Assembly: GCA_021162365.1 (NCBI GenBank)
Contig: JAGGYW010000020.1
Location: 9,154-73,153 of the forward strand
Direction: 5' to 3'
Source of the DNA: Nanobdellota archaeon
GTDB lineage: Archaea; Nanobdellota; Nanobdellia; CSSed11-243R1
DNA length: 64,000 bases
Shown: piece after piece, positions 24,879 through 41,692 of the stretch
Layout of the letters: the number at the start of each line of letters is the position of its first letter
How positions within the stretch are numbered: the first letter of the stretch is position 1
Made by a program: the position numbers and the translations under genes
The notes under the pieces: generated by a model
What the model saw: the letters and a program-made list of their open reading frames with translations, nothing else
What the model was told of the DNA's origin: nothing
The model's database searches: none

Positions 24879-25702
24879 ATTTTAAAGTCAACAACGACCC
24901 TCCAAATTCGTGGTGCAAGTTGCCCACATTTTCTCTTCCGTAAGATTCTTGTTTTCCTTCTCAATTTTTTCTCTGCATCTTTTATTTTCTTAATTGCACC
25001 TTTAAACAATTCTTCCTCTGGAAGGAAGAAGTAACAATGCACAATTGCATTTGGTTTTGCTACATAGAAAGCAACATCAAGAAATTCCCACGCATGCATA
25101 GGTAGATTCATTATGATTCTATCTGCCCTGTGTTTCCATCTGTGTTTTTTCACTACTTTTCTACAATCTCCAACATATGCCTCAATCTTGTCTTCAACTT
25201 TGTTTAGCTTTGCATTTTCTTTTAGGTACTTTATCGCGTGCGGATTTATATCAATTACAACAACTTTTTTGGCTCTTTTTGCAGCAGGAATTGCATAGGG
25301 GCCAACGCCTGAAAATAGATCAAAGACAACTTCATCCTTCTTTATTTGATTTACAACTCTCAGGTGTTCTGTTCCAAGCCGTGGCGAGAAGTAAACCTTG
25401 TTTATATCTAATTTTAACCTTACCCCATTCTCAACATGAATTGTTTCTGTCCTTTTTTCTCCTGCAATTACTTTGACTGGTCTTACCCTCTCTTCTCCTG
25501 AGGTAGGTCCTATCTTTTTTACAACAACTTTCACATTCTTATGTAGCTTCATTATCGCGTCCGCAATTATTTTTTCTTTTTTTTCAATATTTGGTGGTAT
25601 CTCTATCTGTGCTATATCCCCCACTATGTCAAAACCACGTCTAACTGAAGCTAATTCCTCCTTACTTAGCTTGCCTTTGAGAATTTCTTTAAGAGTTGCC
25701 AT
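24872..25702 (-). CDS. Met-10+-like class I SAM-dependent tRNA methyltransferase (Trm5/Taw2 family)
   Basis: VFDLFSGVGPYAIPAA SAM motif and NPH...NLP motif characteristic of Trm5/Taw2. Confidence 0.7.
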   Translation of the reverse strand: MATLKEILKGKLSKEELASVRRGFDIVGDIAQIEIPPNIEKKEKIIADAIMKLHKNVKVVVKKIGPTSGEERVRPVKVIAGEKRTETIHVENGVRLKLDINKVYFSPRLGTEHLRVVNQIKKDEVVFDLFSGVGPYAIPAAKRAKKVVVIDINPHAIKYLKENAKLNKVEDKIEAYVGDCRKVVKKHRWKHRADRIIMNLPMHAWEFLDVAFYVAKPNAIVHCYFFLPEEELFKGAIKKIKDAEKKLRRKTRILRKRKCGQLAPRIWRVVVDFKIY

Positions 25703-26654
25703 TGTTTAACACAGAACCCCTTCCAAGAGTTGTTGAGATTTTTACCCCATCTCCAATTTTACACCCAATGTCTAAAATTGAGTTTACAATATGGCAATTG
25801 TTTCCTATTTTATTATCTTCAAATATAACTGAATTTTTTATTATGCAGTCCCTACCAATTTCTGTCCCGTTATATATTACTACAGGACCAACAAGTTTTG
25901 TTCCTTCACCTATTTTTACATTCTCATCTATCCAGTTTTCTTTTCCATATTTTCTTAATATATACGCTGTTGCTTCAAGATAAGAAGATGGTCTCCCCAC
26001 ATCGACCCAAAATGAATCACTTACAAAGCCATTTATCTTTCCACCCTTTTGTAATATTAGTGGGAATAGCATGCCTGTTGAATCGAGAAATTTCTTTGGT
26101 ATATACTCTATGATCTTTGGCTCCATTATGTATACACCCGTAGAAATCAAGTTGCTCGGCTCTTTTCCAATTGGTGGTTTTTCAACAAACTCAGTTATTC
26201 TAATCCCATCCAATTTTGCAACACCATACCTCCATGGCGTCTCCGTTTTGGCTAGAGCTATTGTGACAACAGCAGGGTTTTCTTTATGAAACCCAAACAT
26301 TTCTTTTAAGTTTATATCAGTAATATTATCTCCAAGAACTAATGCAAATGTTTCATTTATCTTAGATTTTTCAACAGCATATTTTATTGCTCCTGCACCA
26401 CCCAGTCTTTGGGGCTCTTTTATGAAATAGATATTTGCATTTACCTTATTTTCAGAAAAATATTTCTCAATTGCTTCAAATAACTCGTGGCTCCCTATTG
26501 ATATCCATATTTCATTAACCCCATTTTCAATTAAGTAATCAACGATGTGTCTTAGCATAGGTTTATCTACAATAGGGAGCATGTGTTTTGGCCTAACAAA
26601 TGTGAGCGGTTGCAGCCGTGTTCCAAAACCACCGGCTAAGATTATTGCTTTCAT
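25689..26654 (-). CDS. Sugar-1-phosphate nucleotidylyltransferase with C-terminal left-handed beta-helix (hexapeptide) domain
   Basis: MKAIILAGGFGTRLQPLT NTP-transferase signature. C-terminal hexapeptide repeats (IGEGTKLVGPVVI..., IGNNCHIVNSIL...). Confidence 0.8.
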   Translation of the reverse strand: MKAIILAGGFGTRLQPLTFVRPKHMLPIVDKPMLRHIVDYLIENGVNEIWISIGSHELFEAIEKYFSENKVNANIYFIKEPQRLGGAGAIKYAVEKSKINETFALVLGDNITDINLKEMFGFHKENPAVVTIALAKTETPWRYGVAKLDGIRITEFVEKPPIGKEPSNLISTGVYIMEPKIIEYIPKKFLDSTGMLFPLILQKGGKINGFVSDSFWVDVGRPSSYLEATAYILRKYGKENWIDENVKIGEGTKLVGPVVIYNGTEIGRDCIIKNSVIFEDNKIGNNCHIVNSILDIGCKIGDGVKISTTLGRGSVLNNGNS

Positions 26655-27568
26655 TTTTTGTCCCTCAAATAGTTTAAGGTGTCAATAATTGCTTCCTTTA
26701 TGTTATACTTGGGTGCCCATCCAAGCGACTTTAGTTTCTTAATTGAAAGCAACATTTGTGGGATGTCCCCAGGCCAACCAATCTTCCCACCAGTAAACTT
26801 AAATTTGACATTACTTAGTCCAAGTTCATTAACAATTAGTTCTGCAATTCCCTTAACAGAAATCTGTTCTTCGCTTCCCACATTAAATACATCATATTTT
26901 TTGTTTAACTTTTCTGCTGTGAAAACTGTTGCATCAACACAATCTTTTACATGCAAGTATGATTTCTTTTGTGTTCCATCGCCAAGGATTTCAAGTTCAT
27001 TTGGATTTTTCAATAACTTGTGATAAAAATCAAATATTATTCCATGCGTTGATTTCGGGCCAATGATATTTGCATATCTTAACGATAGGCAGTTTATTCC
27101 ATACAAATTTGAGTAACTCATCATATAATTTTCACTTGATGCTTTTGCGGCCCCGTAGTTGCTGATGGGCTTTATTGGTGCTTCTTCAGGTGTTGGAATT
27201 TCAGCTATCCCATATACAACAGAACTTGATGAGAAAACAAATTTCTTGACATCATTTATTCTTGCTGCTTCCAGGACATTAAGCGTTCCCTTTGCATCAA
27301 TTTCAAAGTTTTTAATTGGTTCATAATAGCTCTTTCTGACATCTGGGTCTGCAGCAAGGTGATAGATAATCTCTACATCCTTTGCGGCTTCTTTTAGTTT
27401 TTCTAAATCTAGGATACTTCCTTTGATTATTTCACAGTTTATTCCATCTAAAAATTCCTTTTTTCCGCTCGAAAAGTTGTCATAAACAATTACTTCACGT
27501 TCTTTTGAGAGTTTTTCAACTAAGTGACTCCCAATGAATCCTGCCCCACCCGTTACTAATATTTTCAT
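26651..27568 (-). CDS. NAD-dependent nucleotide-sugar epimerase/dehydratase (UDP-glucose 4-epimerase family)
   Basis: MKILVTGGAGFIGSHL Rossmann motif and YxxxK catalytic region. Confidence 0.8.
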   Translation of the reverse strand: MKILVTGGAGFIGSHLVEKLSKEREVIVYDNFSSGKKEFLDGINCEIIKGSILDLEKLKEAAKDVEIIYHLAADPDVRKSYYEPIKNFEIDAKGTLNVLEAARINDVKKFVFSSSSVVYGIAEIPTPEEAPIKPISNYGAAKASSENYMMSYSNLYGINCLSLRYANIIGPKSTHGIIFDFYHKLLKNPNELEILGDGTQKKSYLHVKDCVDATVFTAEKLNKKYDVFNVGSEEQISVKGIAELIVNELGLSNVKFKFTGGKIGWPGDIPQMLLSIKKLKSLGWAPKYNIKEAIIDTLNYLRDKK

Positions 27569-27643
27569 AAAGACTCTTAGATTTTTAACATTAAAAAAGG
27601 TTGCTTAATAAGTTTTTTAACTAATTATCTGTGTATATCATAT

Positions 27644-28285
27644 ATGGTAAAACCAATTTTTATTGGAATGGGTGGTAGCTCAGGTTCTGGAAAAACAACT
27701 GTTGCAAGGAAATTACTTGAGGAACTCCCTAAGATAAGTAAAAAGATAGGGAAAGAATTGAAGGGTGTTGTTATATCCATGGATGATTACTACAAAGATT
27801 TATCTCATCTACCTTTAAGCGAAAGGAAGAAAGTTAACTTAGATGACCCAAGGCAAATTGATTTTAACTTGTTAAATAGGCAAATGAATCAGCTTTTGAA
27901 GAGAAGGGCCATTAAGAAGCCAATTCATTCTTTTGAAAAGTTTACTCAATTGAAGAGGAGGGAGTTGGTTGGCCCCGTTGATGTAATAATCCTTGAGGGG
28001 ATATTTGCTCTCTATAACAAGAAGTTGTTAAGTAAAATGGATTATAAGGTGTTTGTAATGACAGACCCAAGAATATCCATCCTACGTAGAATTTATAGGG
28101 ATACTATTGAACGTGGAAGAGATTTGAAAGATTCAATAGAGTATACTTTAAACGTTGTTATCCCCATGCATGATAAATATGTTTTTCCGACGCGGAAAAA
28201 TGCAGATTTTTTAATAATTTGGGAAGGTAATGCAACTAGGGCAATCAGTGGGCTAAAAGCATTAATTATTGACTATTTCGAATAA
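27644..28285 (+). CDS. udk: Uridine kinase
   Basis: P-loop GMGGSSGSGKTT, DDYYKD, and the udk hallmark RRIYRDTIERGRD. Confidence 0.8.
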   Translation: MVKPIFIGMGGSSGSGKTTVARKLLEELPKISKKIGKELKGVVISMDDYYKDLSHLPLSERKKVNLDDPRQIDFNLLNRQMNQLLKRRAIKKPIHSFEKFTQLKRRELVGPVDVIILEGIFALYNKKLLSKMDYKVFVMTDPRISILRRIYRDTIERGRDLKDSIEYTLNVVIPMHDKYVFPTRKNADFLIIWEGNATRAISGLKALIIDYFE

Positions 28286-28320
28286 AAATATTTATTAACT
28301 CCTCTTAGGTTTCCTTATTT

Positions 28321-29763
28321 ATGTCAGAGTTAAGAAAAATAGTTAAAAGCTCAATTTATGTTTTTGCAGCGTTTGTAATTGCTGCTGTATTTGGATACCT
28401 TTCTAAAGTTTTGTTGGCAAGGATGCTTGGTCCATCCGAGTTTGGTATGTTCACTCTCTCACTTACTGTTACATATATTTTCTCTGCTTTTGCAATAGCA
28501 GGTGTCGGTACATCTATCACATACTATCTATCCAAAGAAAAAGACAAAAGTAGGAGAAATGCATTTTTCTCTGCGTTATTTTTAATTTCGGTTTTATCTC
28601 TCTTACTGCTTTCAGTTGTGCTTATTTTATTTCCTTCAAAAATCGCATCTATATTTGGAAACACTAATCTGGTAAATATCTCATATTTCCTTGCGGGGTT
28701 CACTTTTCTTTATGGGATTACACGCGTTATGTATTCTATACTTCGTGGGGAGGAAAAATCGAAAGTGTTTGCAATATTCTATGCAGCAATTCCCACATTA
28801 TATTTTACTCTAATCTACTTACTAAAAGTGTCTACGGCACGTCAAGCGCTTCTGTTTTACGTCGTTACATATCTTTCAATTGATTTGTTTTTGTTTCCAT
28901 ATATCTCCAAAAAAGTTAAGTTTGTAAAACCAGATTTTAATCTTGTTAAGAAGGTGTTTTCTTTTTCTGTTGTGTTGTTTTTGGTTGAGGTCCTTTTTAG
29001 CTTAAGAAGATGGACAGATGTTTGGATGCTTAGCTTGCTTTCAAGTGTAGCAAATATTGGGTTTTATAATGTTGCCGCGCTTTCTGCTTTTGCATTTAAC
29101 ATGGCGTTGATGTCTATGAACTTTTTATATCTCCCAGTATCAAATAAGTTATTCCATCAAAACAAGTTATCCCGTCTCCGCGAAGTGTACAACAAAATTT
29201 GTTTTATACTGACGATGGTAGTTTCCCCATTTGCCATTGCTCTTACTATATTTGCCCCACAGTTTATCTCGCTTGTGTTTGGAAGGACCTATCTTCCTTC
29301 TGTAGCTCCTTTTTCAATTTTAATGGTATCCACTTTAGTGAATGTTATGTTCGGCCCTAATTGGACAAATTTAGTAATAAGGCAAGAGAAAAGACTTTTA
29401 GTTTTATTTGCATTGTTTGCACTTATATTGAATGCTATCCTTAACTATTTGTTTATACCAACTTGGGGTATTGCTGGCGCCGCAATAGCAACAGCAGTTT
29501 CAATTATTGCGTGGAATGTAATAACTACAATTGCTATTTGGAAAAAGCAGAAGATGACGCCTTTCTCTAAGAGCATGTTTAAATCTTTGTCTCTTGCATT
29601 GGTAGTCTCAATTCCATTCTTGGTTGCAAGATACTTTGTTTCTCTTTCGGTTCTTTGGGCAATAATCTTTGGAATAGGATATTTATCCCTTTATACATTG
29701 CTTGTAGATAGATTTGTAATAAAATTAAGGAAGGTAGTTAGTTTTGTATTTAGACTTTCATAA
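28321..29763 (+). CDS. Wzx-like oligosaccharide flippase (MOP/polysaccharide biosynthesis family, about 12 TM)
   Basis: 480-aa polytopic membrane protein with the repeated 6+6 TM topology typical of PST/Wzx flippases, inside the glycosylation cluster. Confidence 0.6.
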   Translation: MSELRKIVKSSIYVFAAFVIAAVFGYLSKVLLARMLGPSEFGMFTLSLTVTYIFSAFAIAGVGTSITYYLSKEKDKSRRNAFFSALFLISVLSLLLLSVVLILFPSKIASIFGNTNLVNISYFLAGFTFLYGITRVMYSILRGEEKSKVFAIFYAAIPTLYFTLIYLLKVSTARQALLFYVVTYLSIDLFLFPYISKKVKFVKPDFNLVKKVFSFSVVLFLVEVLFSLRRWTDVWMLSLLSSVANIGFYNVAALSAFAFNMALMSMNFLYLPVSNKLFHQNKLSRLREVYNKICFILTMVVSPFAIALTIFAPQFISLVFGRTYLPSVAPFSILMVSTLVNVMFGPNWTNLVIRQEKRLLVLFALFALILNAILNYLFIPTWGIAGAAIATAVSIIAWNVITTIAIWKKQKMTPFSKSMFKSLSLALVVSIPFLVARYFVSLSVLWAIIFGIGYLSLYTLLVDRFVIKLRKVVSFVFRLS

Positions 29764-29797
29764 GGTTTTTGAATAATTGATATGACGTTGGAGAATA

Positions 29798-31105
29798 CTA
29801 TGTGAGGATATTCCTTACTATCTCAGCTGGTTTTTTAGATAATTTCTTAACTTTTGGAATGTTCTTTCTTAACTTTTCTTTTATCTTTGTTTTGTTGTGT
29901 AATAATTGTTCAAACTTATCTTTTAAGATATTAAGAGACACCTTGTCTATGGGGATCACATATTCTTCTAGATTTAGCATTCTCATTATTCCTCTTGTTT
30001 TTGGTAGATATTCTATCGCGATTGTCGGTACGTACATAGATAACGCGAATATGTTAGAGTGCATTCGTGTCCCTACGAAATAGTCCATACCACCTATGAG
30101 TGCCTTTATTTCAAGTGGGGAAAGATCTTCTTTTATGATAATAAATTTACTTTTGTGCTTAACTCTAGTTTTTATTAGACTTGCTATTTCTCTGTCGTCA
30201 CTATACTTTTCGATGTTTACACTTTTGACGGAAGGAGTTAATATGACTTGTGGGATAAACACAGTGTGCATTTTATATTTTACCCACAAGAAGTCGATGA
30301 ATCTTGCTATTGTATTGATATAATTTTCAATTCTTTCTTTTTTATCCTTTGAGTGTGGGAATTTCCAGTATCTTACAGTTAGCCCAACCCTTTTTTTAGG
30401 TAAGTCGTATCTTTTTGATATAGAAGCTATGTCACTGCTGGATGGATTTGGTAAGCTAAATGCTGCGTCAGCGACTAATATTGCTTCTTTTTTTACTTTC
30501 ATTTTTTTTAAATATTCTAATGATACCTTCTCCCTTACAGTAATTAGTGTGACTCTGTTTAACACGTATCTTGCGAACATAATTAAAATTTTTGAGTAGA
30601 AAGGGCCTATAGACTGTGCATATATCACCACTGGTTTTTTCAGCAATATCCCAAAAAATATATTTAATAAATGAATTACACTCCCAAAACCACCGAGCAA
30701 GAATCCACCACCACAGCTTATGATTATATCTGCTGAAATATACTTGTCAATAGCTAGTTTCTCTTCTTTTGTTAATAACTTGTATATTCTAATGTTAAAT
30801 ACCCTCATTAACAATATAAAAAGTAGTATCCTTACTGCTATTACTGAGAGCATCATTGCCCACACAATCTTAGATTTTGAGTTTGTAAATGGTGTGTTAT
30901 ATCTTGGTGAGCCAATAAGATTTCTAACAACTGTTATGTTGTATTTTTGATATAGTTTTATATCTTCTTGTGGTGTAAATGTAGCAACACTAATCGATGG
31001 ATTATCTAGAGTTTTGTTTAAGTCATTAATCATTCCTAGTATTATCCCCGCGTCTCCTTTGTTTAGTCGGGTGCATAAGTCAATTATATGTATTTTCGTT
31101 TCCAT
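29798..31105 (-). CDS. Polysaccharide pyruvyl transferase family protein (CsaB/WcaK-like)
   Basis: N-terminal N-x-GD motif (LNKGDAGIILG) and the size class of pyruvyl transferases. Start chosen at METKIHII. Confidence 0.45.
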   Translation of the reverse strand: METKIHIIDLCTRLNKGDAGIILGMINDLNKTLDNPSISVATFTPQEDIKLYQKYNITVVRNLIGSPRYNTPFTNSKSKIVWAMMLSVIAVRILLFILLMRVFNIRIYKLLTKEEKLAIDKYISADIIISCGGGFLLGGFGSVIHLLNIFFGILLKKPVVIYAQSIGPFYSKILIMFARYVLNRVTLITVREKVSLEYLKKMKVKKEAILVADAAFSLPNPSSSDIASISKRYDLPKKRVGLTVRYWKFPHSKDKKERIENYINTIARFIDFLWVKYKMHTVFIPQVILTPSVKSVNIEKYSDDREIASLIKTRVKHKSKFIIIKEDLSPLEIKALIGGMDYFVGTRMHSNIFALSMYVPTIAIEYLPKTRGIMRMLNLEEYVIPIDKVSLNILKDKFEQLLHNKTKIKEKLRKNIPKVKKLSKKPAEIVRNILT

Positions 31106-32183
31106 TTTTGGATAGCCCCATATATACATTGAGTATTTTTTTTATTATGGTATCCCACGCAAATATTTTTTTTACGGTGTTTGTAGCGTTTCTTGACAAT
31201 TTAATTCTAAGTTTTTTGTCGTTGTGGAGTTTAGTGATTGCTCTTGTAAGACTCCTTACCGAATTTGGTTTGATTAAAATTCCATTCTTGCCGTCTTTGA
31301 TCATCTCTGGGATACCACCCACATTGGTTGCGATTACTGGTTTTCCATAGCTCATTGTTTCGAGAATAGCAATTGGAAATGCTTCATGTAGTGATGGGAA
31401 AACAACCATTTCAGCGGATAGTATCTCCTTTTTGAGCTTGCTGTATGGGAGGTACCCAAGTAACTTCACATTTTTTATTTTTTTATGTTTAATATATTCC
31501 TTTATTCTATTGTATAAAGGACCTTTCCCCACGATGTAAAATGTAAACCCTGTTAGAACTCGCGCGGCATCTAATAGGGTGAAGATCCCCTTTTCCTTAC
31601 TTAATCTTCCGAAAAAAAGAATTTTTCTTTGTGCGTATTTATGGTTGCTCACTTTTGTCGTATTAACTCCATTGTAAATAACTTTAATTTTACTTTTAGA
31701 CACACCACTTCTTAAGAGGATTTCTTTGGAGTAATTAGAGACAGCGATTATATTATCGGATTTATTTAGGTAGTGCACCAATATTTTTCTAAGTATTATG
31801 TTAGTTATTGATTTATGCCCGCCAGTTAGATGAAAAGTTACACTCACAGTTTTCCCACAAAATTTTAGCAAAGGGATGAGAAAAACAAAAGGAAACTCCC
31901 CAAGTTGTATTGAGAATAACTTGGGTAGTTTATCTCTGTTTAATAGGACATACAAGTATGCATACAATACGAAGGAAATGCTTCTTATGTATCTCCCAAA
32001 ATTTATAAATGGGATCTTATGGATTTTAATTTTTTTTAGATAATATGAGGGGTACTTATATGTAATTACTTCGACGTGGACTCCTTTTCTTTTAAGTAAT
32101 CTTATCATATCTTCTGCATATTTTGTGACACCCCCGCCTTTGTACCATTTGCTCTTTAATGGAGTTATAATGCATATTTCCAT
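31080..32183 (-). CDS. GT4-family glycosyltransferase
   Basis: C-terminal E-x7-E motif region (EAFPIAILETMSYGKPVIAT). Confidence 0.8.
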   Translation of the reverse strand: MEICIITPLKSKWYKGGGVTKYAEDMIRLLKRKGVHVEVITYKYPSYYLKKIKIHKIPFINFGRYIRSISFVLYAYLYVLLNRDKLPKLFSIQLGEFPFVFLIPLLKFCGKTVSVTFHLTGGHKSITNIILRKILVHYLNKSDNIIAVSNYSKEILLRSGVSKSKIKVIYNGVNTTKVSNHKYAQRKILFFGRLSKEKGIFTLLDAARVLTGFTFYIVGKGPLYNRIKEYIKHKKIKNVKLLGYLPYSKLKKEILSAEMVVFPSLHEAFPIAILETMSYGKPVIATNVGGIPEMIKDGKNGILIKPNSVRSLTRAITKLHNDKKLRIKLSRNATNTVKKIFAWDTIIKKILNVYMGLSKNGNENTYN

Positions 32184-33238
32184 TATTTCACCAACGTAAT
32201 TATTTCCTTAACAATCTTATCCCAGCTATATTCTTTTTTCACTTTCTTAAATCCATTTTCCGCGATTTTTTGGCGTAGTTTTTTATTTTTTGCAAGTTTG
32301 TTTATCCACATTTCTAATTTTGATATGTCTCCCTTCGTTAGTATCACTAGTTCTTTTCCGCTTTTGAATCTTTTTTTAATGTCTCCGATATCATATGCGA
32401 TACATGCAGTCCTTGCTGCCATCGCTTCTAATAATACTATTGGCATACCCTCATAATAAGAAGGCATCACAAAAATGTCAGCGTGCTTTAGGTAGGGAGT
32501 AACATCATTAACAAACCCAATAAAGTGACAGTTTGGTATTCTATCACACATCTTTTTTACTTTATCCTTTTCTGGGCCTTTTCCAATGATATAAACACCA
32601 ATCTCTTTTGACAATTGCTTGGATACTCTTATAATATCATAAACACCTTTTGATGGGATAAGTCTACCTACAAAAAGGACATTAACTTCATACTTGAACA
32701 CTTTCGGCTTCTTAACTCTTTTTCTGAATTTATTAATATCAACCCCATTTGGGATAACTGGCACTTTTTTTCCTCTAACTTTGGATACTTCCTTTGCGCT
32801 TTCATAATCAACCGCGAATACTTTGGTAGCGTGTTTAAAAGTGTAATGCTCCATTAACTTTAATATAAACTTTACAGGTTTTGGCCAGTCGCTCCTTAAA
32901 TATCCTATACCGTGTGCAACATAAACTATTGGAATCTTTTTGAAAAAGAAAGTTGTTCCAAAACCATGGACTGCATCATTTACATAAATCACGTCTGGCT
33001 TTATTTTTCTAAGTTCTAGAAGCGAGAAAGGTAGCATGGAAAGTTTATTTGTGTATCTACCAGGTATATAATATACTCTATGTATTTTAACCCCATTGAG
33101 TCTTACTTTGTTGTCTTTATTAACAATTAAGTGGACTTCGTTTCCAAGCTTTGCCAATCTAGGAGCTACATTTTTTATGTGTGTTTCAATTCCACCCGGT
33201 TCATTTAGGTTTTTTAGTCCAACGATTGCAACTCTCAT
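32183..33238 (-). CDS. GT4-family glycosyltransferase
   Basis: EGMPIVLLEAMAARTACIAYD motif. Start set at MRVAIVG, which abuts the upstream gene stop. Confidence 0.8.
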   Translation of the reverse strand: MRVAIVGLKNLNEPGGIETHIKNVAPRLAKLGNEVHLIVNKDNKVRLNGVKIHRVYYIPGRYTNKLSMLPFSLLELRKIKPDVIYVNDAVHGFGTTFFFKKIPIVYVAHGIGYLRSDWPKPVKFILKLMEHYTFKHATKVFAVDYESAKEVSKVRGKKVPVIPNGVDINKFRKRVKKPKVFKYEVNVLFVGRLIPSKGVYDIIRVSKQLSKEIGVYIIGKGPEKDKVKKMCDRIPNCHFIGFVNDVTPYLKHADIFVMPSYYEGMPIVLLEAMAARTACIAYDIGDIKKRFKSGKELVILTKGDISKLEMWINKLAKNKKLRQKIAENGFKKVKKEYSWDKIVKEIITLVK

Positions 33239-33615
33239 TTCCACACCACCATAACCACACCAGCTACGATGGTAAATATCCCTATCCATCTAATTAATGT
33301 GATTCTCTCGCCTAAGACGAAGACAGACAATATCGCCGCTACTATATAACTTACTGCGATTATAGGGTATAACATACTTAGCTCTCCTTTTGAAAGGGCT
33401 GCAAGATAAATAATCGTTGAAATGGCATATATAACCACCCCGGCTAAGATATATCTGTTTGTTGCGATTATCTTTAAGAATTGCTTTGTCATTTCTATAA
33501 CAGATATCTCTCCAACATCTGTCATTCCTTTTTTGAAGAGCACTTGGGCACTTCCACCCAAAATTGCCGCACTTACTACAAGCAACAATATAATTACCTC
33601 CATTTTACCACCCAT
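33235..33615 (-). CDS. Small 4-TM DMT/EamA-type membrane protein (ArnE/ArnF-like candidate lipid-linked sugar flippase subunit)
   Basis: 126 aa, four predicted TM helices, conserved G/E in the middle helices; context in the glycosylation operon. Confidence 0.4.
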   Translation of the reverse strand: MGGKMEVIILLLVVSAAILGGSAQVLFKKGMTDVGEISVIEMTKQFLKIIATNRYILAGVVIYAISTIIYLAALSKGELSMLYPIIAVSYIVAAILSVFVLGERITLIRWIGIFTIVAGVVMVVWK

Positions 33616-33619
33616 TTTC

Positions 33620-34063
33620 TCACCAAATTATGTTTAGCACACCAATTGTGCTAAGGGTTACAATTACTCCTGCAATTGTTACCCCAATAGATATCACAAT
33701 GAAGGATTTCCACCATTCGATATCAAATAACCAAGCAATTATTGTTCCAGTCCATGCGCCAGTTAGAGGTAGGGGGATTGCAACAAAAGGGATCAATCCC
33801 CATATGCCATACTTCTCCATTTGTTTATGTCCTTTTTTTCTAATCCTTTCGATTTGCTTATGCATAAAATTATTTTTTCTTAAATGTTCGTAAAAAAATT
33901 CGAGCCCGAAGTATATGGGAAAAAACACTAACGAATTAAATATCACTGCAACAATAAAAACAATAAGTGGATTCATTCCAAGCGCGATTCCTGTGGGAAT
34001 TGCCCCACGTAGTTCGCTTATTGGTATAACTGAAAGTAAAATTACAACTAATTCATTAATCAT
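33620..34063 (-). CDS. Small polytopic membrane protein, COG2426-like
   Basis: SELRGAIPTGIALG motif and a 4-TM layout. The family name 'small multidrug export protein' is from memory. Start chosen at MINELVV, abutting the aglH-like stop. Confidence 0.35.
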   Translation of the reverse strand: MINELVVILLSVIPISELRGAIPTGIALGMNPLIVFIVAVIFNSLVFFPIYFGLEFFYEHLRKNNFMHKQIERIRKKGHKQMEKYGIWGLIPFVAIPLPLTGAWTGTIIAWLFDIEWWKSFIVISIGVTIAGVIVTLSTIGVLNIIW

Positions 34064-35106
34064 ATCATCACCAAAAACACAACAGAGCACCATATAACGA
34101 ATGAGAGTATAATTATTAAACTAACTTGCCATTCCTTAAACCTACCTAGCTTCATTACAACATGTGTGAGGGAATACACTTTTCTGTATGGTGCTTTCAG
34201 AGTCTCATCTTTTTGTAGTACACCAAAGTTTTCTGCTTTAAACTTACTCCTTGCTTTTAGGATTAACTCGATAAACCATGGGGCAAAGAGAAGCAATGCG
34301 AATTTTTCTACATTTCCGATTATTGCTACAATTGCCGTAGCACCGCCAATTAAATAATCGAGACCGCCAGGGAAAATTTTTGCAGGATACCAATTATATC
34401 TTATAAAAGCAATTAGCGTTGCTACGAGTACAAATGAGATTATTGTAGCACCATATGCTCCGTGAACGTATGAATACATCCCTAGAAATGACAATAATAC
34501 AATACCTAACCCCGGCGTTAATCCATTAAATCCAGCAAGCATGTTTGTCGCATTTGCAGCTCCAAGAACTGCAATTGGAATTATAACAAGTGGATATAAA
34601 ATTCCAACTTCAATGGCGCCAAAGAAAGGAAGGTGTAATATGTGCTCTCCAGCACCTGTTGCCATTAATGGTAATGCTGCAAGCGCCATAAGCAGTGGTT
34701 GTTGGTATTGTGCTAATCCAATTCTTTTATGTTTTTCAAATCCATTCTTCCCTTCTCTTTTTTTAATAAGTGTAGTTAATTCATCGAGCGAGGCAATGAA
34801 TGTTAGGATAATTAGTGATGTAATTGCACTTAAAAAGTATAGTAATTCTTTTTCCGTCATTGAATGAATTATGTATTGCTGGGCAAATATGTATGCAAAC
34901 ACCCCAATTATAAACCCAAATATGATTGGTGGTGCACCCATTTCCGGGATTTTAGGATTTCCTCTTTTCATCAGATCTCTGCCTACAATACCCTCAAGTT
35001 TTAGGATTCTAATAAATTGTGGTGTTATTGCATACGTTGTTAAGAATGCAAGAAAGGAAGGGATTAAAATGGAAAGATACATCTTACCACCCCTCTTCAT
35101 TTTCAA
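34060..35106 (-). CDS. Polyprenyl-phosphate N-acetylhexosamine-1-phosphate transferase (MraY/WecA/AglH family, GT4 Pfam PF00953)
   Basis: Polytopic membrane protein with the conserved NATNMLAGFNGL motif (N-x-x-N-x-x-D-G-hh-D-G-L equivalent). Confidence 0.75.
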   Translation of the reverse strand: MKMKRGGKMYLSILIPSFLAFLTTYAITPQFIRILKLEGIVGRDLMKRGNPKIPEMGAPPIIFGFIIGVFAYIFAQQYIIHSMTEKELLYFLSAITSLIILTFIASLDELTTLIKKREGKNGFEKHKRIGLAQYQQPLLMALAALPLMATGAGEHILHLPFFGAIEVGILYPLVIIPIAVLGAANATNMLAGFNGLTPGLGIVLLSFLGMYSYVHGAYGATIISFVLVATLIAFIRYNWYPAKIFPGGLDYLIGGATAIVAIIGNVEKFALLLFAPWFIELILKARSKFKAENFGVLQKDETLKAPYRKVYSLTHVVMKLGRFKEWQVSLIIILSFVIWCSVVFLVMI

Positions 35107-37669
35107 GAGCAGTCCAGTTGTACTTGTATATTCTTATGATTGGACCAGCACCTCTTGCCGTATTTACATCAAGTTTGTACCCATTGTCGTATACCTTTTC
35201 GAATCCACTTATATTTCTGTCAAGAAGGAAAAGTTGTGTGAATAGGATATCCTTTGATTTGTATGGAATATTTATAATTCCCCCATCCACAGGAAGAGCA
35301 CATGTTGGTACTCCCGTTACATTTAACTCAAAACATCCTTTGTGTTCAACACATATACATTCAACTGGAAGTACTTCCATACTCCTAGTTACTTCATCAT
35401 ATATCTGTGCAAGTAAAGGCCCTGTCGTATTTTGGGTTGCAGGCTGTATGTAACTCATTAAATGTGTTTTCTCCCCATTGTACATCATGCTCCCGACTCT
35501 AAAATCTTTCATGATTGGAGGGTATCCTGTTAAAGGATGATAAATAATTAAAAGAGGATACTCTTTGTATTCTTTTAGGTTATTTGGAACGACGCTTTGG
35601 TCTCTTACCAGCCCATACACGCTAAATGTCATTTCTCTACCATGTGTGCCTTCGCTTAAGCTACCAAGCCTCGCTATTTGTACAAATTTTAATATGTCTT
35701 CAGATGGGATTACAAAATAAACATCCTTCCCAGTAAGGTGATATTTGTCTGTAAACCAAAGAATTTCAGAATAGTTAAATGCATTAAATACATGACCTCC
35801 AATGTCGTAGTTTCTCACAACATGAAAATTACCTGGATCGCCAACGGTTGGTCTATTTGCCATAGTTTGGATTAAATAACCATAATCCCACCAGTGAGTA
35901 AATATTGAATCTTGTGGTGTATTCTCTTTTATCCAATCTGTTGCTTCATACCACTTGCTAAGGCTTGCTCCAGGATTCATATGTGCTACTGCTGTGGATA
36001 CGGCAAAAAATGACGGGACTATTACGAGAATGCTTAACACAATTGCAGCAACAATTACCCAATTTTCTTTATGTGATCCCCCCCACTTTATTAACCATTT
36101 GATGAAGTATCCTGCAAGAATTGCAGCTGGTGTAGCCATAATGAAGAATAATCTAACTGCTCCGTTGGTTGCAATTATTGATATTAAATACCACGAGATT
36201 AATAATAATCCCATAGAATCAATTTTCTTTAGCTCTTCTTTTTTGTTTGCAATTAAAACTGCTAAGAGAACAGCGCCGAATATACCTGCGTACACAATTT
36301 GCGGGGAAAATATCGTATTTACCCACGCGTATTTGAAATCATTAGTGAAATGTTCAAATGTAAGCGCTAGTGTAAATATTGCAAATGCCCAAGTTAGATA
36401 ATTCCCATATTTTATCTCTTTGAATTTATCCCTAAATAAGAGAATCGCTCCTGTAAAGAACATTAAAAATACTAGCCCGAATGACACATAGGTGTTGCCC
36501 ATCCCAATAGATATGCCAAACACATTCCACCAGCTTGTTCCACCACCAATAAATGTTGGAGGTTGATTTTCGCTAACAGTCTGCCCAAATACATTTAACG
36601 TTAATGGGGTTGACAACCTACCCACCATATAATTTATTCTATCAGAAACAAATGAAGGACCTAATAGAATTGTTGCACCAACTAAAAGGATTGCAACTCC
36701 AATTAAAATTGCAGTTATCCCCGTAGGGATTATCTTGATTTTTTCTTTTAGCTTCCTCATAAAACTTAGCTTGTCAAATGAAACAAATACTCCACCAATT
36801 ACTATTGCAGCAATTGGTATTTGGAATTGTATTGATTTGTAAAATTTAAGGAACCCACCATACTTTAGGGTTAGTAGTGACGTGAATATGTATGTAAATA
36901 GCAGCCATACTAAGAATGTTTTTAATTTTCTTTCATCAAGTTTTTCAAACAATACTTCAAATATTAGGAACAAAGAGATGTATAAAACTATAAATATAAA
37001 CAACCCTGATGAAAATGCTGCAAGCCCTGTGAATATGCCTGCTGCGATGCTTAGTAAGTAGTGTTTGCGTTGTTCTTTTTCCTTATACGCTTTTATGAAT
37101 AAATACATAGAAATCATAAATAGTGGAAGGAATAATGGTTCTTTTTCTAGGAATCCCCCAACCGTTCTTAAGAGAATTGCTGGGGAAAACGCCAATATAC
37201 CTGTTGAAATTAAAGCAATCTTCTCATCATTTAGTAATTCTTTGGACAGGAAGAAAAATGCTATGAGCGCTATTACAAACAGTGATGGCGCATAATACGC
37301 CGCTATGTCGAACATATTTACGTTTGGATTTAATTTATGCACAAAGTTATAAATATAACCTGCTAAATATGCTGTAAATGCATTTTCTCTTTTTGTATCA
37401 AATCCTTCGGGGTAGTACCTTAGTGTATCATTTGCTGGTAGACTTCCTTTTTCAGCGACAATAGTAGAATATCTCAAGAACACGTATGGGTCGTCTGGGC
37501 TTATCAAATATTTATGTTGTAATTGAGGGACGTCTCTTGTTCTAGAATAAAATCCACCTAATAGTAGGAGTATAAGTAAAATGTATGTAATTATCTTTTG
37601 ATTTCTTTTGAAGAAATCAAAAATCTTGTCAAAGTCAATTTCTATTTCTTTTTTTTCATTTTCATCCAT
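35084..37669 (-). CDS. aglB: Archaeal oligosaccharyltransferase AglB (STT3 homolog)
   Basis: 861 aa, N-terminal 13-TM domain, and the diagnostic WWDYG motif (FTHWWDYGYLIQ). Confidence 0.9.
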   Translation of the reverse strand: MDENEKKEIEIDFDKIFDFFKRNQKIITYILLILLLLGGFYSRTRDVPQLQHKYLISPDDPYVFLRYSTIVAEKGSLPANDTLRYYPEGFDTKRENAFTAYLAGYIYNFVHKLNPNVNMFDIAAYYAPSLFVIALIAFFFLSKELLNDEKIALISTGILAFSPAILLRTVGGFLEKEPLFLPLFMISMYLFIKAYKEKEQRKHYLLSIAAGIFTGLAAFSSGLFIFIVLYISLFLIFEVLFEKLDERKLKTFLVWLLFTYIFTSLLTLKYGGFLKFYKSIQFQIPIAAIVIGGVFVSFDKLSFMRKLKEKIKIIPTGITAILIGVAILLVGATILLGPSFVSDRINYMVGRLSTPLTLNVFGQTVSENQPPTFIGGGTSWWNVFGISIGMGNTYVSFGLVFLMFFTGAILLFRDKFKEIKYGNYLTWAFAIFTLALTFEHFTNDFKYAWVNTIFSPQIVYAGIFGAVLLAVLIANKKEELKKIDSMGLLLISWYLISIIATNGAVRLFFIMATPAAILAGYFIKWLIKWGGSHKENWVIVAAIVLSILVIVPSFFAVSTAVAHMNPGASLSKWYEATDWIKENTPQDSIFTHWWDYGYLIQTMANRPTVGDPGNFHVVRNYDIGGHVFNAFNYSEILWFTDKYHLTGKDVYFVIPSEDILKFVQIARLGSLSEGTHGREMTFSVYGLVRDQSVVPNNLKEYKEYPLLIIYHPLTGYPPIMKDFRVGSMMYNGEKTHLMSYIQPATQNTTGPLLAQIYDEVTRSMEVLPVECICVEHKGCFELNVTGVPTCALPVDGGIINIPYKSKDILFTQLFLLDRNISGFEKVYDNGYKLDVNTARGAGPIIRIYKYNWTALENEEGW

Positions 37670-37679
37670 AACATCACCT

Positions 37680-38639
37680 TCAGCTAAATAACAGTGGCGT
37701 CACACTCACTTCAAGTAATGCACCAATTATTAACAGCAACACAGCTAATGCAATTAAGTCAAAAGAATCAAGCACAATTTCATAAAACTTTGGGTCCTTA
37801 TAATCTGACTTAACAACAGCGGCAGAAATTATTCCTCCCGCGATTGCTCCAAGGAAATAGGCACCTATCTCCGGGAGGCCATGTATCATGTATCTTGCTA
37901 CACCGAGAGAACTGGCTTTGAAGTATGCGGAGACTCCACCACCTAATGTACCTATTTGTCTCTTGATGAAGTTGCCCATAGCTACTGCAAGTATGCTTGA
38001 GTTCCATGCGAGGATAAATATTGCTCCTGCACCGTATAAAAATGAGAATAACAAGGAGAATAAAAGCACCTTGAAATTATTTAGCAGTATAATCTTTAAA
38101 CTTTCTTCTGCTGTGAAGGCACCTTGGATTGCACTTCCTGAGAAATTTGAAGGACCCAATATTGAAGTGATAGTTTTAATTTGCTTAGAGAAAAGTAAAT
38201 TTACTGTTTCGCTGGGGAGGAAAATATATGTGAATATAAACAATACTAAAAATCCAAAGAACATATAAGTGAACACTAAAAATACATCCATGTGTGATCT
38301 TATCAGTGGCATTTTTTTCGCAATTTTTAGGGTCTCCATTTCCTCTTCTTCTTCCACTGTTAGCACATTTATCAGAAGTGGAAGTGCGGCGAGCGTTGTA
38401 AGGAAAATTATAGAAATGCTTGGATCATCGGGAAATATAAAATATGCAAGAACGACAGCTACTGCAGCATAAAATATTCCTAGCATGAATGCGCTTGTTG
38501 GTTTTTCTCTGACATGTGTTGGGCTTAAAATGTTTTCTAAAACCATAAACAAAATTAAAAAAAGAAAAGTTATATAGCTTACTGAATTAATTTTTTGTAT
38601 GGGTGTTAATTTAAAGGACCTCATACTTGCGAAAGACAT
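37680..38639 (-). CDS. DUF95/SpoIIM-family polytopic membrane protein
   Basis: Conserved HGLPEIGAYFLGAIAGG motif of DUF95. The start is uncertain: 38639 would overlap the divergent fen start, and an internal Met near 38549 is plausible. Confidence 0.5.
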   Translation of the reverse strand: MSFASMRSFKLTPIQKINSVSYITFLFLILFMVLENILSPTHVREKPTSAFMLGIFYAAVAVVLAYFIFPDDPSISIIFLTTLAALPLLINVLTVEEEEEMETLKIAKKMPLIRSHMDVFLVFTYMFFGFLVLFIFTYIFLPSETVNLLFSKQIKTITSILGPSNFSGSAIQGAFTAEESLKIILLNNFKVLLFSLLFSFLYGAGAIFILAWNSSILAVAMGNFIKRQIGTLGGGVSAYFKASSLGVARYMIHGLPEIGAYFLGAIAGGIISAAVVKSDYKDPKFYEIVLDSFDLIALAVLLLIIGALLEVSVTPLLFS

Positions 38640-39609
38640 CAGGCTTAAAGATCTTTCTGGAAAAAAAATTGGAATAGATGCGTATAACTGGACCTATCAA
38701 TTCCTTTCCACCATACGACTAAGGACAGGTGAGCTTTTAACGGATAGTAAGGGAAGGGTGACCTCCCACCTAATTGGGATATTCAACAGGACAATTAACT
38801 TGTTAAGAGAGGGAATAAAACCTGTCTATGTTTGGGATGGAGCGCCCCCTCCATTTAAACACAAAACTTTGGAGGAGAGAGAAAGGATTAAACAAAGAGC
38901 TGAGGAGGCGTTTAAAAAGGCTGAAACCGAAGAAGAGAGAAGGAAGTATGCACAGCAAATCTCACGCCTGACAGAGGATATGATTTCTGACGCAAACAAA
39001 CTTCTTGAATTGATGGGTGTTCCGTACTTAAATGCCCCAAGTGAAGGTGAAGCACAGATTTCACACATGGTTTCCAGGGGAGATTTATGGGCTTGTGCAT
39101 CTCAGGACTGGGATTCCCTGCTTTTTGGCAGTAAAATACTTGTTAGGAATCTTTCTATCTCAGGGAAAAAGAAATTACCACGTACCAGAATTTTTAGGAC
39201 TATCAATCCTCAGATAATTTTGTTGGATGAAAATTTGAGGAGACTTGGTATAAGTAGGGAGCAGTTAATTATAATTGGCATGTTGATAGGCACTGACTAC
39301 TGCAGCGGTGTTAGAGGATTCGGTCCGAAGAAGTCTTTAGAGCTTGTTAAAAAGGAGAGAACATTAGATAATGTGTTGAAGGTTGTTAAATGGGAGTGCG
39401 AAGCAGACCCACACAAAATTTTTGATTGGTTTTTGCATCCAAAGGTGACAGATAACTATTCTTTAGAATGGGAAGAAATAGATAAGGAGAAGTTGACTAA
39501 ATTCTTAGTTGATGAGCATGATTTTAGCTTGGAGAGGGTTGAAAGTCAATTGAAGCAAATCTCGGAAGAAAACACTAAGCAAACAGGTTTAGGTAAATTT
39601 TTAAAGTAG
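38599..39609 (+). CDS. fen: Flap endonuclease 1
   Basis: N-terminal MGVNLKDLI...KKIGIDAYNWTYQFL (XPG-N), XPG-I acidic residues and helix-hairpin-helix region; 336 aa. Confidence 0.9.
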   Translation: MGVNLKDLILAKDIRLKDLSGKKIGIDAYNWTYQFLSTIRLRTGELLTDSKGRVTSHLIGIFNRTINLLREGIKPVYVWDGAPPPFKHKTLEERERIKQRAEEAFKKAETEEERRKYAQQISRLTEDMISDANKLLELMGVPYLNAPSEGEAQISHMVSRGDLWACASQDWDSLLFGSKILVRNLSISGKKKLPRTRIFRTINPQIILLDENLRRLGISREQLIIIGMLIGTDYCSGVRGFGPKKSLELVKKERTLDNVLKVVKWECEADPHKIFDWFLHPKVTDNYSLEWEEIDKEKLTKFLVDEHDFSLERVESQLKQISEENTKQTGLGKFLK

Positions 39610-39628
39610 CAATTAACTCTTTCTTTTC

Positions 39629-40444
39629 ATGGTTAATAACACATTTGTAGAGGTAATATTGTCAGCTCTTCCTGGTGAGGGAATCTTGCCATATATTGCA
39701 ACTTTTTTAATTATACTTTTCTTCGGATGGATAACAGGCAAAATCATAAGATGGGTTGTACATAAGATTTTACACATTGTTGGTGTTGATAAATTCACAA
39801 AATCAACAAATAGAGTAGTTAGTAAGTTAGGATATCGGGGAACAACAGTTGACTTTGTTTCCGACTTATGTAAATGGGTGGTTTATTTAATTTTTATTAG
39901 CATTGCAGCCCAGCTAATATTTGGTGAGCAGCTTTTAAGTAATATGCTCCTATCCACCATGACATACCTACCAAAAGTAGTTGTTGCAATTATTTTCATA
40001 ATTGGTGGTTTAATAATTGGGGACCTTCTTGGAGCAATTGTTTCAAACCTAGTTAGCAGATTCCCATTAAAACTGGAAGAAAAGAGTCTAATTGTTTCAT
40101 TATCTTCAGCGGTCACTAAAGTTTTGGTTGTACTTGTCGCCATAGTAATTGCGCTTAATGTTATTGGAGTGTATGTAGAGATACTAACAGTTGGATTTGG
40201 TATAATTGCACTGACAATATCTTTGTTTATTCTAATTGGCACAAAGGATTTGGCAATTAATATTTTTGCAGGGATGTACCTCCATTCTTTTAAAAATTTC
40301 AGAAAGGGAATAAACGTGGAAGTTGATGGAATAAGGGGAACAATTAAAGAGATAGGTTTAGTTTTTACAACAATAACAAACGGAAAGAGTGAGTTTCATA
40401 TCCCCAATTACATTTTTATGAGGAAGAGCTTTGTGATTAAGTGA
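39629..40444 (+). CDS. Small-conductance mechanosensitive channel (MscS family)
   Basis: Three N-terminal TM helices plus C-terminal MscS beta-domain (GINVEVDGIRGTIKEIGLVFTTITNGKSEFHIPN). Confidence 0.75.
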   Translation: MVNNTFVEVILSALPGEGILPYIATFLIILFFGWITGKIIRWVVHKILHIVGVDKFTKSTNRVVSKLGYRGTTVDFVSDLCKWVVYLIFISIAAQLIFGEQLLSNMLLSTMTYLPKVVVAIIFIIGGLIIGDLLGAIVSNLVSRFPLKLEEKSLIVSLSSAVTKVLVVLVAIVIALNVIGVYVEILTVGFGIIALTISLFILIGTKDLAINIFAGMYLHSFKNFRKGINVEVDGIRGTIKEIGLVFTTITNGKSEFHIPNYIFMRKSFVIK

Positions 40445-40448
40445 TATT

Positions 40449-40814
40449 ATGAAAAAGGTAGTAATTGGATTAGTTGAGCCTGTAAAGGTTATTGGTAAGA
40501 AAAGGGCAGTTAAACTTTTAGCAAAAATTGATACTGGCGCAGCAAGGAGTAGCTTAGATGAGGGAGTTGCAGAGCAACTTGATTTGGGACCCGTTGTTAA
40601 GTTTGTAAGGGTAAAATCTGCTGTTGCGGATAAGATGTACGATAGGCGCCCGGTTTACAGAGCAAGAATTGAAATTGGTGGTAAAAAAATTCCAGTCGAA
40701 ATAAGTACTGCAGATAGAAGAAGGTTGAAGTATAAGATGATTATTGGTAGAGACATTCTTCGTTCTAATTTCATAGTTGATGTAGAACACACATATAAGA
40801 CTGTTAAGAGGTGA
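40449..40814 (+). CDS. RimK-associated retropepsin-like putative protease (Pfam Zn_protease/DUF785)
   Basis: 121 aa with a DTGAARSS motif in the position of the DUF785 aspartyl-protease-like fold. Immediately upstream of two ATP-grasp genes. Confidence 0.6.
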   Translation: MKKVVIGLVEPVKVIGKKRAVKLLAKIDTGAARSSLDEGVAEQLDLGPVVKFVRVKSAVADKMYDRRPVYRARIEIGGKKIPVEISTADRRRLKYKMIIGRDILRSNFIVDVEHTYKTVKR

Positions 40815-41692
40815 CTATGGTAAACTTACTTGTTTTAGCGCCAAGGAAGAAGTCTATTTCCACAGATATGTTGATTTCGGCAGCTAAAAGAATGTTTAAG
40901 AGAGTAGATTTTGTGCCGTTGAGAGAAGTTTCACTTGAAGTGTCAGATAAATTTGGTGTGTTACATGATGAAATTTCTCTTTTAGATTATGATTATGTTC
41001 TCCCACGAATCGATTCAAAGCACGCAAGTTTTGGATACCACATAATTAAGATGCTTGATTTCTTTGATGTGAAAAAACCTTATCCAGCAGAGAGCATATT
41101 AATTGCTCACAATAAATTTGCCACAATATTTGAAGCAAAAAAGAATGGCGTACCCGTTCCACGCACCATTTATACTTTCTCACAAAAGTCTGCAAATGAA
41201 ACAATACACCGTATGAGTTTTCCTGTAGTAGTTAAATTGGTAAGCTCTTTCGGTGGGAAGGGTGTTCTTTTTGTTGAAGGGGAAACTGCCGCAAGGAGTG
41301 TTTTCAAGACGATGGATGTTTTAAAACAAGATTTACTGATAGAGGATTATATAGAAAACCCTGGAGAAGACATACGTGGAATTGTTGCAGGGGACGAGAT
41401 TGTAGGTAGTTTCAAGAGGGTCGCAAGAAAAGGAGAGAAACGTTCTAATTTTTTCCTTGGTGGGAAGCCAAAGGAGTATACCTTAACCGAGGAAGAGAAG
41501 GAGATTTGTTTCAAGGCAGCAGAGGCAGTTAAGTCAAAAATAGTAGCGGTGGATATGATACAAAGTAAAGAAGGACCAAAGGTTATTGAGGTTAATTTAA
41601 ATCCAGGGATAAAGGCAATGGCGCAGACAGAAACAGGTAAGGATGTGGCTAAAAAAATAGTTCGTTTTTGCCATAATGAAACAAAGAGGTAA
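40811..41692 (+). CDS. RimK-family ATP-grasp ligase (alpha-L-glutamate ligase-like)
   Basis: ATP-grasp motifs: glycine-rich loop SSFGGKGVLFV, catalytic region ...DMIQSKEGPKVIEVNLNPG. Confidence 0.75.
   Translation: MTMVNLLVLAPRKKSISTDMLISAAKRMFKRVDFVPLREVSLEVSDKFGVLHDEISLLDYDYVLPRIDSKHASFGYHIIKMLDFFDVKKPYPAESILIAHNKFATIFEAKKNGVPVPRTIYTFSQKSANETIHRMSFPVVVKLVSSFGGKGVLFVEGETAARSVFKTMDVLKQDLLIEDYIENPGEDIRGIVAGDEIVGSFKRVARKGEKRSNFFLGGKPKEYTLTEEEKEICFKAAEAVKSKIVAVDMIQSKEGPKVIEVNLNPGIKAMAQTETGKDVAKKIVRFCHNETKR

Follow-up and report, generated by a model that had tools for sequence, protein, structure and literature searches.

The 64-kb window examined here (64,000 nucleotides of contig JAGGYW010000020.1, from an uncultured DPANN archaeon of the Nanobdellota) carries, between positions 25689 and 38639, a block of 12 genes that includes the oligosaccharyltransferase (OST) AglB. 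This region is very probably an N-glycosylation (agl) locus, running a pathway in which a glycan is assembled on a lipid carrier, flipped across the membrane, and transferred to protein. Immediately upstream of aglB lies a gene of the SpoIIM (DUF95) family, which is a partner of AglB conserved across DPANN archaea. All 12 of the open reading frames (ORFs) named in an earlier reading of the window (the original prediction) were recovered at the same coordinates, and its assignment of the region to N-glycosylation was upheld. So were its gene-by-gene family calls, in profile searches against Pfam and NCBIfam that covered the polysaccharide pyruvyl transferase (PS_pyruv_trans), the family 4 glycosyltransferases (GT4), EamA, and PF06695; the DUF95 call was reached through homologs.

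By domain and motif content, AglB is an oligosaccharyltransferase, predicted to transfer glycan to asparagine. It scores above the Pfam cut-off for STT3 (Table 1), its closest solved relatives are STT3A/B (E = 5e-14), and it carries both signature motifs of the family, which we take to be WWDYG and DxxKxxx(M/I) in the C-terminal domain. The WWDYG motif, already noticed in the original prediction, was read directly at residues 593 to 597, and the DK motif was read as D658-I-L-K661-F-V-Q-I665. Residues W593 to G597, D658, and K661 are invariant in the AglB alignment (A1).

The closest solved relative of the AglH-type initiating transferase is human DPAGT1 (E = 3e-10, versus 3e-5 for MraY), and the enzyme falls far under the NCBIfam cut-offs for MraY_archaea and WecA. 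Its stretch NATNMLAGFNGL (NxxNxLAGxNGL) aligns with NAINILAGINGL of DPAGT1. Because the enzyme is nearer to DPAGT1 than to MraY, the carrier-linked intermediate is most likely dolichyl diphosphate (Dol-PP)-GlcNAc. With such an intermediate, AglB would release Dol-PP, whose reuse would require dephosphorylation and a return to the cytoplasmic face. Neither a Dol-PP phosphatase nor a dolichol kinase was found within the 64-kb window, so the description of the locus as a "complete" assembly line was an overstatement; the window likewise holds no PAP2, UppP, or DUF368 gene.

Between 38546 and 29798, eight of the genes are packed into a single minus-strand unit, in the order SpoIIM-like, AglB, AglH-type, PF06695, EamA half-transporter, two GT4 enzymes, and pyruvyl transferase. 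The junctions, read directly, are very tight. A single nucleotide lies between the aglB stop (35084) and the aglH ATG at 35082, the aglH TGA and the PF06695 ATG overlap as ATGA (PF06695 start, 34063), 4 nt separate PF06695 from the EamA half, and the EamA TGA and the ATG of the conserved GT4 gene (GT4b) again overlap as ATGA (GT4b start, 33239). Five true starts (38546, 35082, 34063, 33239, and 31105) lie downstream of the longest-ORF starts (the longest AglH ORF, for example, begins at a TTG at 35106), and the corrected starts agree with gene lengths in relatives. On the plus strand, udk and wzx converge on this unit, and an epimerase and pyrophosphorylase pair is divergent from udk.

Three other DPANN metagenome-assembled genome (MAG) assemblies (L001/L011, which are one contig, L002, and L003) were compared with the window proteins by tblastn. 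All three keep the order FEN1, SpoIIM-like, AglB, AglH, PF06695, EamA half, and GT4b, so AglB adjoins these genes in related genomes too, a linkage on which the original prediction had staked its reading. Identities across this end of the locus are high and culminate in the SpoIIM-like protein (Table 1). The middle behaves otherwise: the second GT4 (GT4a) reaches at most 32% identity to any GT4 in L002 or L003, the relatives lack any counterpart of the pyruvyl transferase and of udk, and L002 and L003, which come from one sample, nevertheless differ from each other in this region. Together with the identity pattern, this difference shows a locus that is conserved at both ends, with a variable middle that specifies the glycan. 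One conserved end is spoIIM-like-aglB-aglH-PF06695-EamA-GT4 and the other is wzx-epimerase-pyrophosphorylase; the pyrophosphorylase (nucleotidylyltransferase) gene has the same position in L002. The lowest G+C content of the window (0.33, against 0.35 to 0.37 over most of the rest) falls at 28001 to 32000, over wzx, the pyruvyl transferase gene, and GT4a, which is compatible with a horizontally exchanged glycan module.

The association of the SpoIIM-like gene with aglB extends well beyond these close relatives. A search with an AglB alignment retrieved 80 species-representative loci, all of them from DPANN archaea, and their ORFs were searched with hidden Markov models built from the collected homologs; 70 of the loci had enough sequence upstream of aglB. 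Of these 70, 39 have a SpoIIM-like gene directly upstream of aglB on the same strand (median gap, ~7 nt), and 45 have one anywhere within 10 kb of aglB. Directly downstream, an AglH-type gene follows at 29 of 70 loci (median gap, 1 nt), and the full SpoIIM-like/AglB/AglH triad is present at 24 of 62. SpoIIM-AglB-PF00953 triads also surround SpoIIM-like homologs at 42 to 52% identity. At 12 of the DPANN loci, wzx comes directly after aglH, the slot that is occupied in the window clade by PF06695 and the EamA half. FEN1, which flanks the SpoIIM-like gene in the window, is detectable at just 14 of the 80 loci; the spoIIM-aglB pair has thus outlasted the general order of genes, which has decayed. 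The original prediction had listed the DUF95 protein as a minor item, and here the family call held, via homologs, but the standing did not: no protein of the cluster is better conserved, and it is a DPANN-wide partner of AglB. Tandem AglB paralogs were also seen at two DPANN loci (L041, 11 to 4841; L068, 9866 to 15383).

This adjacency might carry no functional meaning and simply reflect a gene order handed down within a single DPANN radiation. All 80 loci come from related DPANN groups, FEN1 and MscS also lie nearby at some of them, a SpoIIM homolog in a MAG labelled Altiarchaeales does not adjoin AglB, and a 2015 description of archaeal SpoIIM homologs (arCOG01994) found them mostly as stand-alone genes, predicted a role in membrane remodelling, and drew no link to AglB. 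However, the pair persists where AglB identity has fallen to just 26 to 31%, on the same strand and with a gap of a few nucleotides, after FEN1 has gone from most loci, and its SpoIIM-like member is both the best conserved protein of the cluster and rich in invariant polar residues. We consider inherited order rather unlikely as the explanation, and we favor a partnership between the two proteins.

The DUF95/SpoIIM assignment of the window protein is supported through its homologs. Of 45 such homologs (41 to 83% identity), 34 match PF01944 SpoIIM, with a best E value of 2.5e-18, and a 288-aa database protein identical to the window protein (P0121, 100%) has a precomputed PF01944 match. The AlphaFold2 (AF2) model is all-helical, with a predicted local distance difference test (pLDDT) score of 84. 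Across the 45 homologs, E65, H85, Q122, N156, N157, N182, H222, E226, D260, and E279 are invariant, a set that hints at a specific binding or catalytic site more than at an inert scaffold. A role as the Dol-PP phosphatase was considered and dropped, as its sole basis was the presence of invariant His, Glu, and Asp residues.

We found no paper that links PF01944 to AglB or that describes spoIIM-aglB adjacency. Elsewhere, the SpoIIM/DUF95 family is present in all circular-bacteriocin clusters, and a knock-out of lcyD traps the mature product in the cell. The window protein resembles Bacillus subtilis SpoIIM and the circular-bacteriocin DUF95 proteins in its PF01944 membership (through homologs), in being polytopic, and in having partner machinery that acts on substrates at the membrane's outer face. 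It differs in that there are no SpoIID/SpoIIP or bacteriocin genes here, the conserved partner is AglB, and its own sequence has diverged too far to match the Pfam model.

Between aglH and the first GT4 gene lie two genes for small membrane proteins, which the original prediction had put forward as an undescribed flippase component. One belongs to PF06695, published as the fourth family of the DedA superfamily. Weak matches to the VTT/DedA domain PF09335 were obtained for 8 of 48 PF06695 members (best E = 8.5e-4), and the AF2 model (pLDDT, 91) has short helix-break-helix elements at invariant P14-E17-R19 and P97-P99-T101-G102. Both DedA (UptA) and DUF368 (PopT) include undecaprenyl-phosphate flippases (Roney & Rudner; Sit et al.). 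Of archaeal DUF368 genes, 37% lie within agl clusters, often adjacent to aglB, and a role in recycling dolichyl phosphate has been proposed for them. Like UptA and PopT, the window protein is a small polytopic membrane protein of a probable re-entrant-loop family, and its gene lies beside that of an enzyme releasing the free polyprenyl-phosphate carrier. Unlike them, it is neither DUF368 nor canonical DedA (PF09335), and its agl synteny is limited to one small clade (4 assemblies, in which it is next to aglH/aglB), as opposed to 37% of archaeal DUF368. Given the DedA relationship, recycling of dolichyl phosphate would be more plausible for PF06695 than flipping of the glycan-lipid, and the flippase-component proposal was not borne out: the DedA link favors recycling of the free carrier, as by UptA and PopT, and coupling to agl genes is confined to a narrow clade. 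No functional test of any PF06695 member was found in the literature. In two Aenigmatarchaeota-labelled loci, a NUDIX hydrolase gene overlaps the PF06695 start near HMG-CoA reductase (L004, 9519 to 10453; L005, 2381 to 3315), and in a Nanoarchaeia locus a NUDIX gene follows the AglH-type gene (L009, 12799 to 13215). These neighbors may be a hint that pyrophosphate bonds are hydrolyzed in the metabolism of the carrier or of isoprenoids.

The other small protein is an EamA half-transporter with four hydrophobic segments, which exceeds the EamA cut-off (Table 1). Its best NCBIfam match, ArnF (NF002816), scores 47.7 bits, under the cut-off of 99. It shares with the Escherichia coli ArnE/ArnF undecaprenyl-phosphate-L-Ara4N flippase a length of ~120 aa, four transmembrane (TM) segments, and EamA/DMT half-transporter membership within a lipid-linked sugar pathway. 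Besides its score, it differs in occurring as a single gene, in the window and in L001 to L003 alike, where ArnE and ArnF form a heterodimeric pair. Unlike the ArnE/ArnF context, the window has no GT2 able to make a dolichyl phosphate (Dol-P)-monosaccharide substrate. Tandem ArnE/ArnF-like EamA halves do lie directly beside spoIIM-like-aglB in two Woesearchaeota-labelled loci (L032, 8389 to 9088; L053, 5811 to 6535).

In the pathway that we propose, the GPT/AglH-type enzyme would make Dol-PP-GlcNAc at the cytoplasmic face by loading dolichyl phosphate with GlcNAc-1-P, and the conserved GT4, followed by the strain-specific GT4, would add two sugars from donors supplied by the pyrophosphorylase and the GalE-like epimerase. 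In this strain, a pyruvate ketal would be placed on the lipid-linked intermediate by the pyruvyl transferase. Wzx would flip the finished lipid-linked glycan, and AglB would move it to N-X-S/T sites of surface proteins, for example, a sequon-rich, membrane-anchored S8 protease encoded at the start of the window. The SpoIIM-family protein, probably co-transcribed with AglB in most relatives, would most likely be an accessory or scaffold partner or function in export or carrier handling. PF06695 would most likely bring the released dolichyl phosphate back to the cytoplasmic face, by analogy with what DedA-type UptA does for undecaprenyl phosphate, and the EamA half would most likely be a flipper of lipid-linked sugar on the ArnE/F model. 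We infer the identities of the sugars and the order of the steps from the enzyme families.

Several observations weigh against this pathway, or against parts of it. Functions are assigned at the level of families, and the NCBIfam equivalog cut-offs were missed for WcaK/CsaB, GalE, ArnF, and the MOP flippase. The SpoIIM-like protein of the window itself has no Pfam match, even at E ≤ 10, no informative structural relative was found for it, and the Altiarchaeales-labelled homolog noted above is unlinked to AglB. Among the 80 DPANN species, PF06695 lies within 10 kb of AglB in one (L011, the same contig as L001) and an EamA half in three. PF06695 homologs at ~50% identity sit among unrelated genes for translation, purine metabolism, or Fe-S functions. 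In a wider control of 80 metagenomic loci with PF06695 at 35 to 50% identity (L092 to L171), AglB, AglH, SpoIIM-like, and EamA-half genes occur within 6 kb of PF06695 at none, and the top same-strand neighbor is PCMT (10 of 70 neighbors), with no glycan theme. Gene context therefore supports a role of PF06695 in glycosylation only inside the window clade. Finally, the Wzx/GT4/pyruvyl transferase module could build a separate polysaccharide, as considered below.

This restricted context, along with the subthreshold similarity of the EamA half to ArnF, makes it quite possible, if still short of probable, that the two small proteins are passengers: small exporters or transporters of a generic kind that were taken into the operon in one clade and have no role in glycosylation. 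On the other hand, both are translationally packed between aglH and a GT4 gene through ATGA overlaps, and both have kept their place, at 61 to 71% identity, in three more assemblies in which the downstream genes were exchanged. They fill the slot taken by wzx at 12 other DPANN loci, tandem EamA halves adjoin spoIIM-aglB elsewhere, and the DedA superfamily includes proven polyprenyl-phosphate flippases. We also put forward, tentatively and with some doubt, a more general proposal: in many DPANN archaea AglB may be co-expressed and work with a SpoIIM/DUF95 partner (an OST subunit or carrier handler), to which the window clade would add PF06695, for dolichyl phosphate recycling, and the EamA half, and together these proteins might supply the missing carrier-translocation steps.

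The pyruvyl transferase belongs to the strain-variable part of the locus. It matches PF04230 over profile positions 1 to 278 of 280, and its top NCBIfam matches, WcaK (118.9 bits versus a cut-off of 399) and CsaB (104 bits versus 213), fall short of the orthologue cut-offs; a sequence search of the PDB gave no match. Outside the strain, its nearest homolog is 55% identical and the next ~40%, with many from Firmicutes and one Hodarchaeota protein. Since no counterpart exists in the relatives at 60 to 80% identity and the nearest homolog is this distant, the pyruvylated glycan of the original prediction narrows to this strain, for which it is a reasonable reading; the family call behind it holds. 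Pyruvylation of an N-glycan is something that we infer from the enzyme family. Compared with the ketal-pyruvyl transferases WcaK, CsaB, and Pvg1p, the protein has PF04230 over its full length, misses both equivalog cut-offs, and has no orthologue in the nearest relatives of the window organism. Pvg1p provides a precedent for pyruvylated N-glycans.

Alternatively, Wzx, GT4a, the pyruvyl transferase, the epimerase, and the pyrophosphorylase might make a separate pyruvylated surface polysaccharide or lipid-linked glycan, with AglB transferring only a short conserved core. According to a review of pyruvyl transferases, characterised PS_pyruv_trans enzymes mostly act on exopolysaccharides, capsules, and cell-wall polymers, and no pyruvylated archaeal N-glycan is described there; the nearest named homologs of the window enzyme, many of them from Firmicutes, are annotated as colanic acid/amylovoran type. 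However, the same review records pyruvylated N-glycans in Schizosaccharomyces pombe, the pyruvyl transferase gene is the last of the tightly packed aglB-aglH operon, and the window showed neither a polymerase (Wzy) nor a chain-length regulator. Two pathways from one locus would also be unlikely for a DPANN genome of such size. A separate polysaccharide thus appears improbable to us, and a single N-glycan pathway is preferred.

One further observation concerns GT4b. Another assembly of this strain (L091, with 100% identity over 13 kb) has ~160 bp of the gene inverted, which splits it (window, 32865 to 33048; L091, 2795 to 2954). We considered a phase-variable invertible switch and rejected it, as the inversion is not clean: the junctions share just 8 to 9 nt, with a 31-bp inverted duplication and a 15-bp loss. 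The inverted segment is more likely an assembly or amplification chimera.

The original prediction also mentioned three genes outside the packed unit, with different outcomes. The S8 protease at the start of the window (75 to 5396) carries 61 N-X-S/T sequons, a density of 34 per 1,000 aa versus 5.4 per 1,000 in the other 60 ORFs and ~30 expected from its own N/S/T content. The sequons are densest at residues 870 to 1410, and a C-terminal transmembrane segment (residues 1734 to 1762) is followed by the polybasic tail RPKRKKRKRR; no obvious signal peptide was found at the listed GTG start. As had been suggested, the protease is a plausible substrate of AglB, judging from these sequence features. 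The uppS gene (14611 to 15291) is real (PF01255, 209.9 bits), but it lies 10.4 kb from the cluster among the housekeeping genes for UPF0047, TyrRS, NFACT, and PolB, and was dropped as a cluster member. Lastly, udk is indeed on the plus strand, divergent from the epimerase gene, but L002 has no udk between wzx and the epimerase gene; we dropped it as a functional member and regard it as probably a passenger.

Table 1. Genes of the agl locus, with profile scores and amino acid identities in close relatives (positions are those of the window)
Gene product	Position	Strand	Length and profile evidence	Identity in relatives
SpoIIM/DUF95-family polytopic membrane protein	37680..38546	-	288 aa; longest ORF, to 38639, would overlap FEN1	76-80% (cluster maximum)
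AglB oligosaccharyltransferase	35084..37669	-	861 aa; PF02516 STT3 58.4 bits (cut-off 24.5)	60-64%
AglH/GPT-type UDP-GlcNAc:dolichyl-phosphate GlcNAc-1-P transferase	34060..35082	-	340 aa; PF00953 86.6 bits	65-74%
PF06695 "Sm_multidrug_ex" small membrane protein, DedA superfamily	33620..34063	-	147 aa; 128.3 bits (gathering cut-off 30.7)	69-71%; syntenic in L001-L003
4-TM EamA half-transporter, ArnE/ArnF-like	33235..33615	-	126 aa; EamA 37.1 bits (cut-off 28.2)	61-71%
GT4b, conserved GT4 glycosyltransferase	32183..33239	-	351 aa from ATGA start; Glycos_transf_1 112.7 bits, Glyco_transf_4 82 bits	68-69% (L002/L003)
GT4a, variable GT4 glycosyltransferase	31080..32183	-	367 aa; Glycos_transf_1 140.1 bits	≤32% to any GT4 in L002/L003; 27-28% over full length
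Polysaccharide pyruvyl transferase family protein, variable	29798..31105	-	435 aa; PF04230 143.1 bits (cut-off 25.3)	no counterpart
Wzx-type MOP flippase	28321..29763	+	480 aa; Polysacc_synt_3 76 bits and Polysacc_synt 67 bits, above gathering score; NCBIfam MOP equivalog 48.8 bits (below cut-off 273)	64% (L002)
Uridine kinase, udk	27644..28285	+	213 aa; NF004018 193.5 bits (over cut-off 180)	no counterpart
NAD-dependent NDP-sugar epimerase/dehydratase, GalE-like	26651..27568	-	305 aa; PF01370 179.5 bits; GalE TIGR01179 173.9 bits (under cut-off 262)	74% (L002)
Sugar-1-phosphate nucleotidylyltransferase with LbH domain	25689..26654	-	321 aa; PF00483 151.6 bits; top NCBIfam matches ManC-like, Arch_glmU, and rmlA_long, all under cut-offs	

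The source genome is already public and machine-annotated: P0121 and P0241, database proteins 100% identical to the SpoIIM-like protein and the pyruvyl transferase, respectively, come from a GenBank MAG labelled "Nanoarchaeota archaeon." The cluster is flanked at 38599 to 42583 by genes for FEN1, an MscS-like channel, a RimB-like aspartyl protease, and two RimK-type ATP-grasp proteins, which are syntenic in close relatives, and a PCMT gene lies a few kilobases from the cluster both in the window (42573 to 43205) and in L001 (785 to 1420). Farther along, a stand-alone 257-aa ORF with a LAGLIDADG_3 homing-endonuclease-like domain was observed (52105 to 52878), and the stretch from 55627 to 56931 has no ORF of at least 110 aa. 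No tRNA genes and no Rfam families at gathering score were found across the 64-kb window.

Taken together, the gene content, family membership, operon packing, and conservation pattern describe a cluster that is, for the most part, an ordinary agl locus. As in the agl clusters around AglB of Haloferax volcanii, Methanococcus, and Sulfolobus, AglB is accompanied by an initiating transferase, soluble glycosyltransferases, NDP-sugar enzymes, and a Wzx-like MOP protein, and glycosyltransferase content varies between close relatives. The differences from characterised clusters are the uncultured DPANN host, the GPT/DPAGT1-like initiator, which would imply a Dol-PP carrier, the presence of a pyruvyl transferase, and an operon whose first gene is of the SpoIIM family and which also holds PF06695 and an EamA half. 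We know of no characterised agl cluster that has the SpoIIM-family, PF06695, or EamA-half gene.

To our knowledge, the proteins that move dolichol-linked glycans and free dolichyl phosphate across the membrane have not been identified in archaea, nor for the most part in eukaryotes. Three compact candidates for carrier translocation emerge from this locus and its relatives, and their genes share an operon with those for the enzymes that open and close the pathway. Diversification of the glycan at the level of strains is suggested by the variable middle. DPANN archaea rely on surface contact with their hosts, and the glycan coat probably matters for that interaction.

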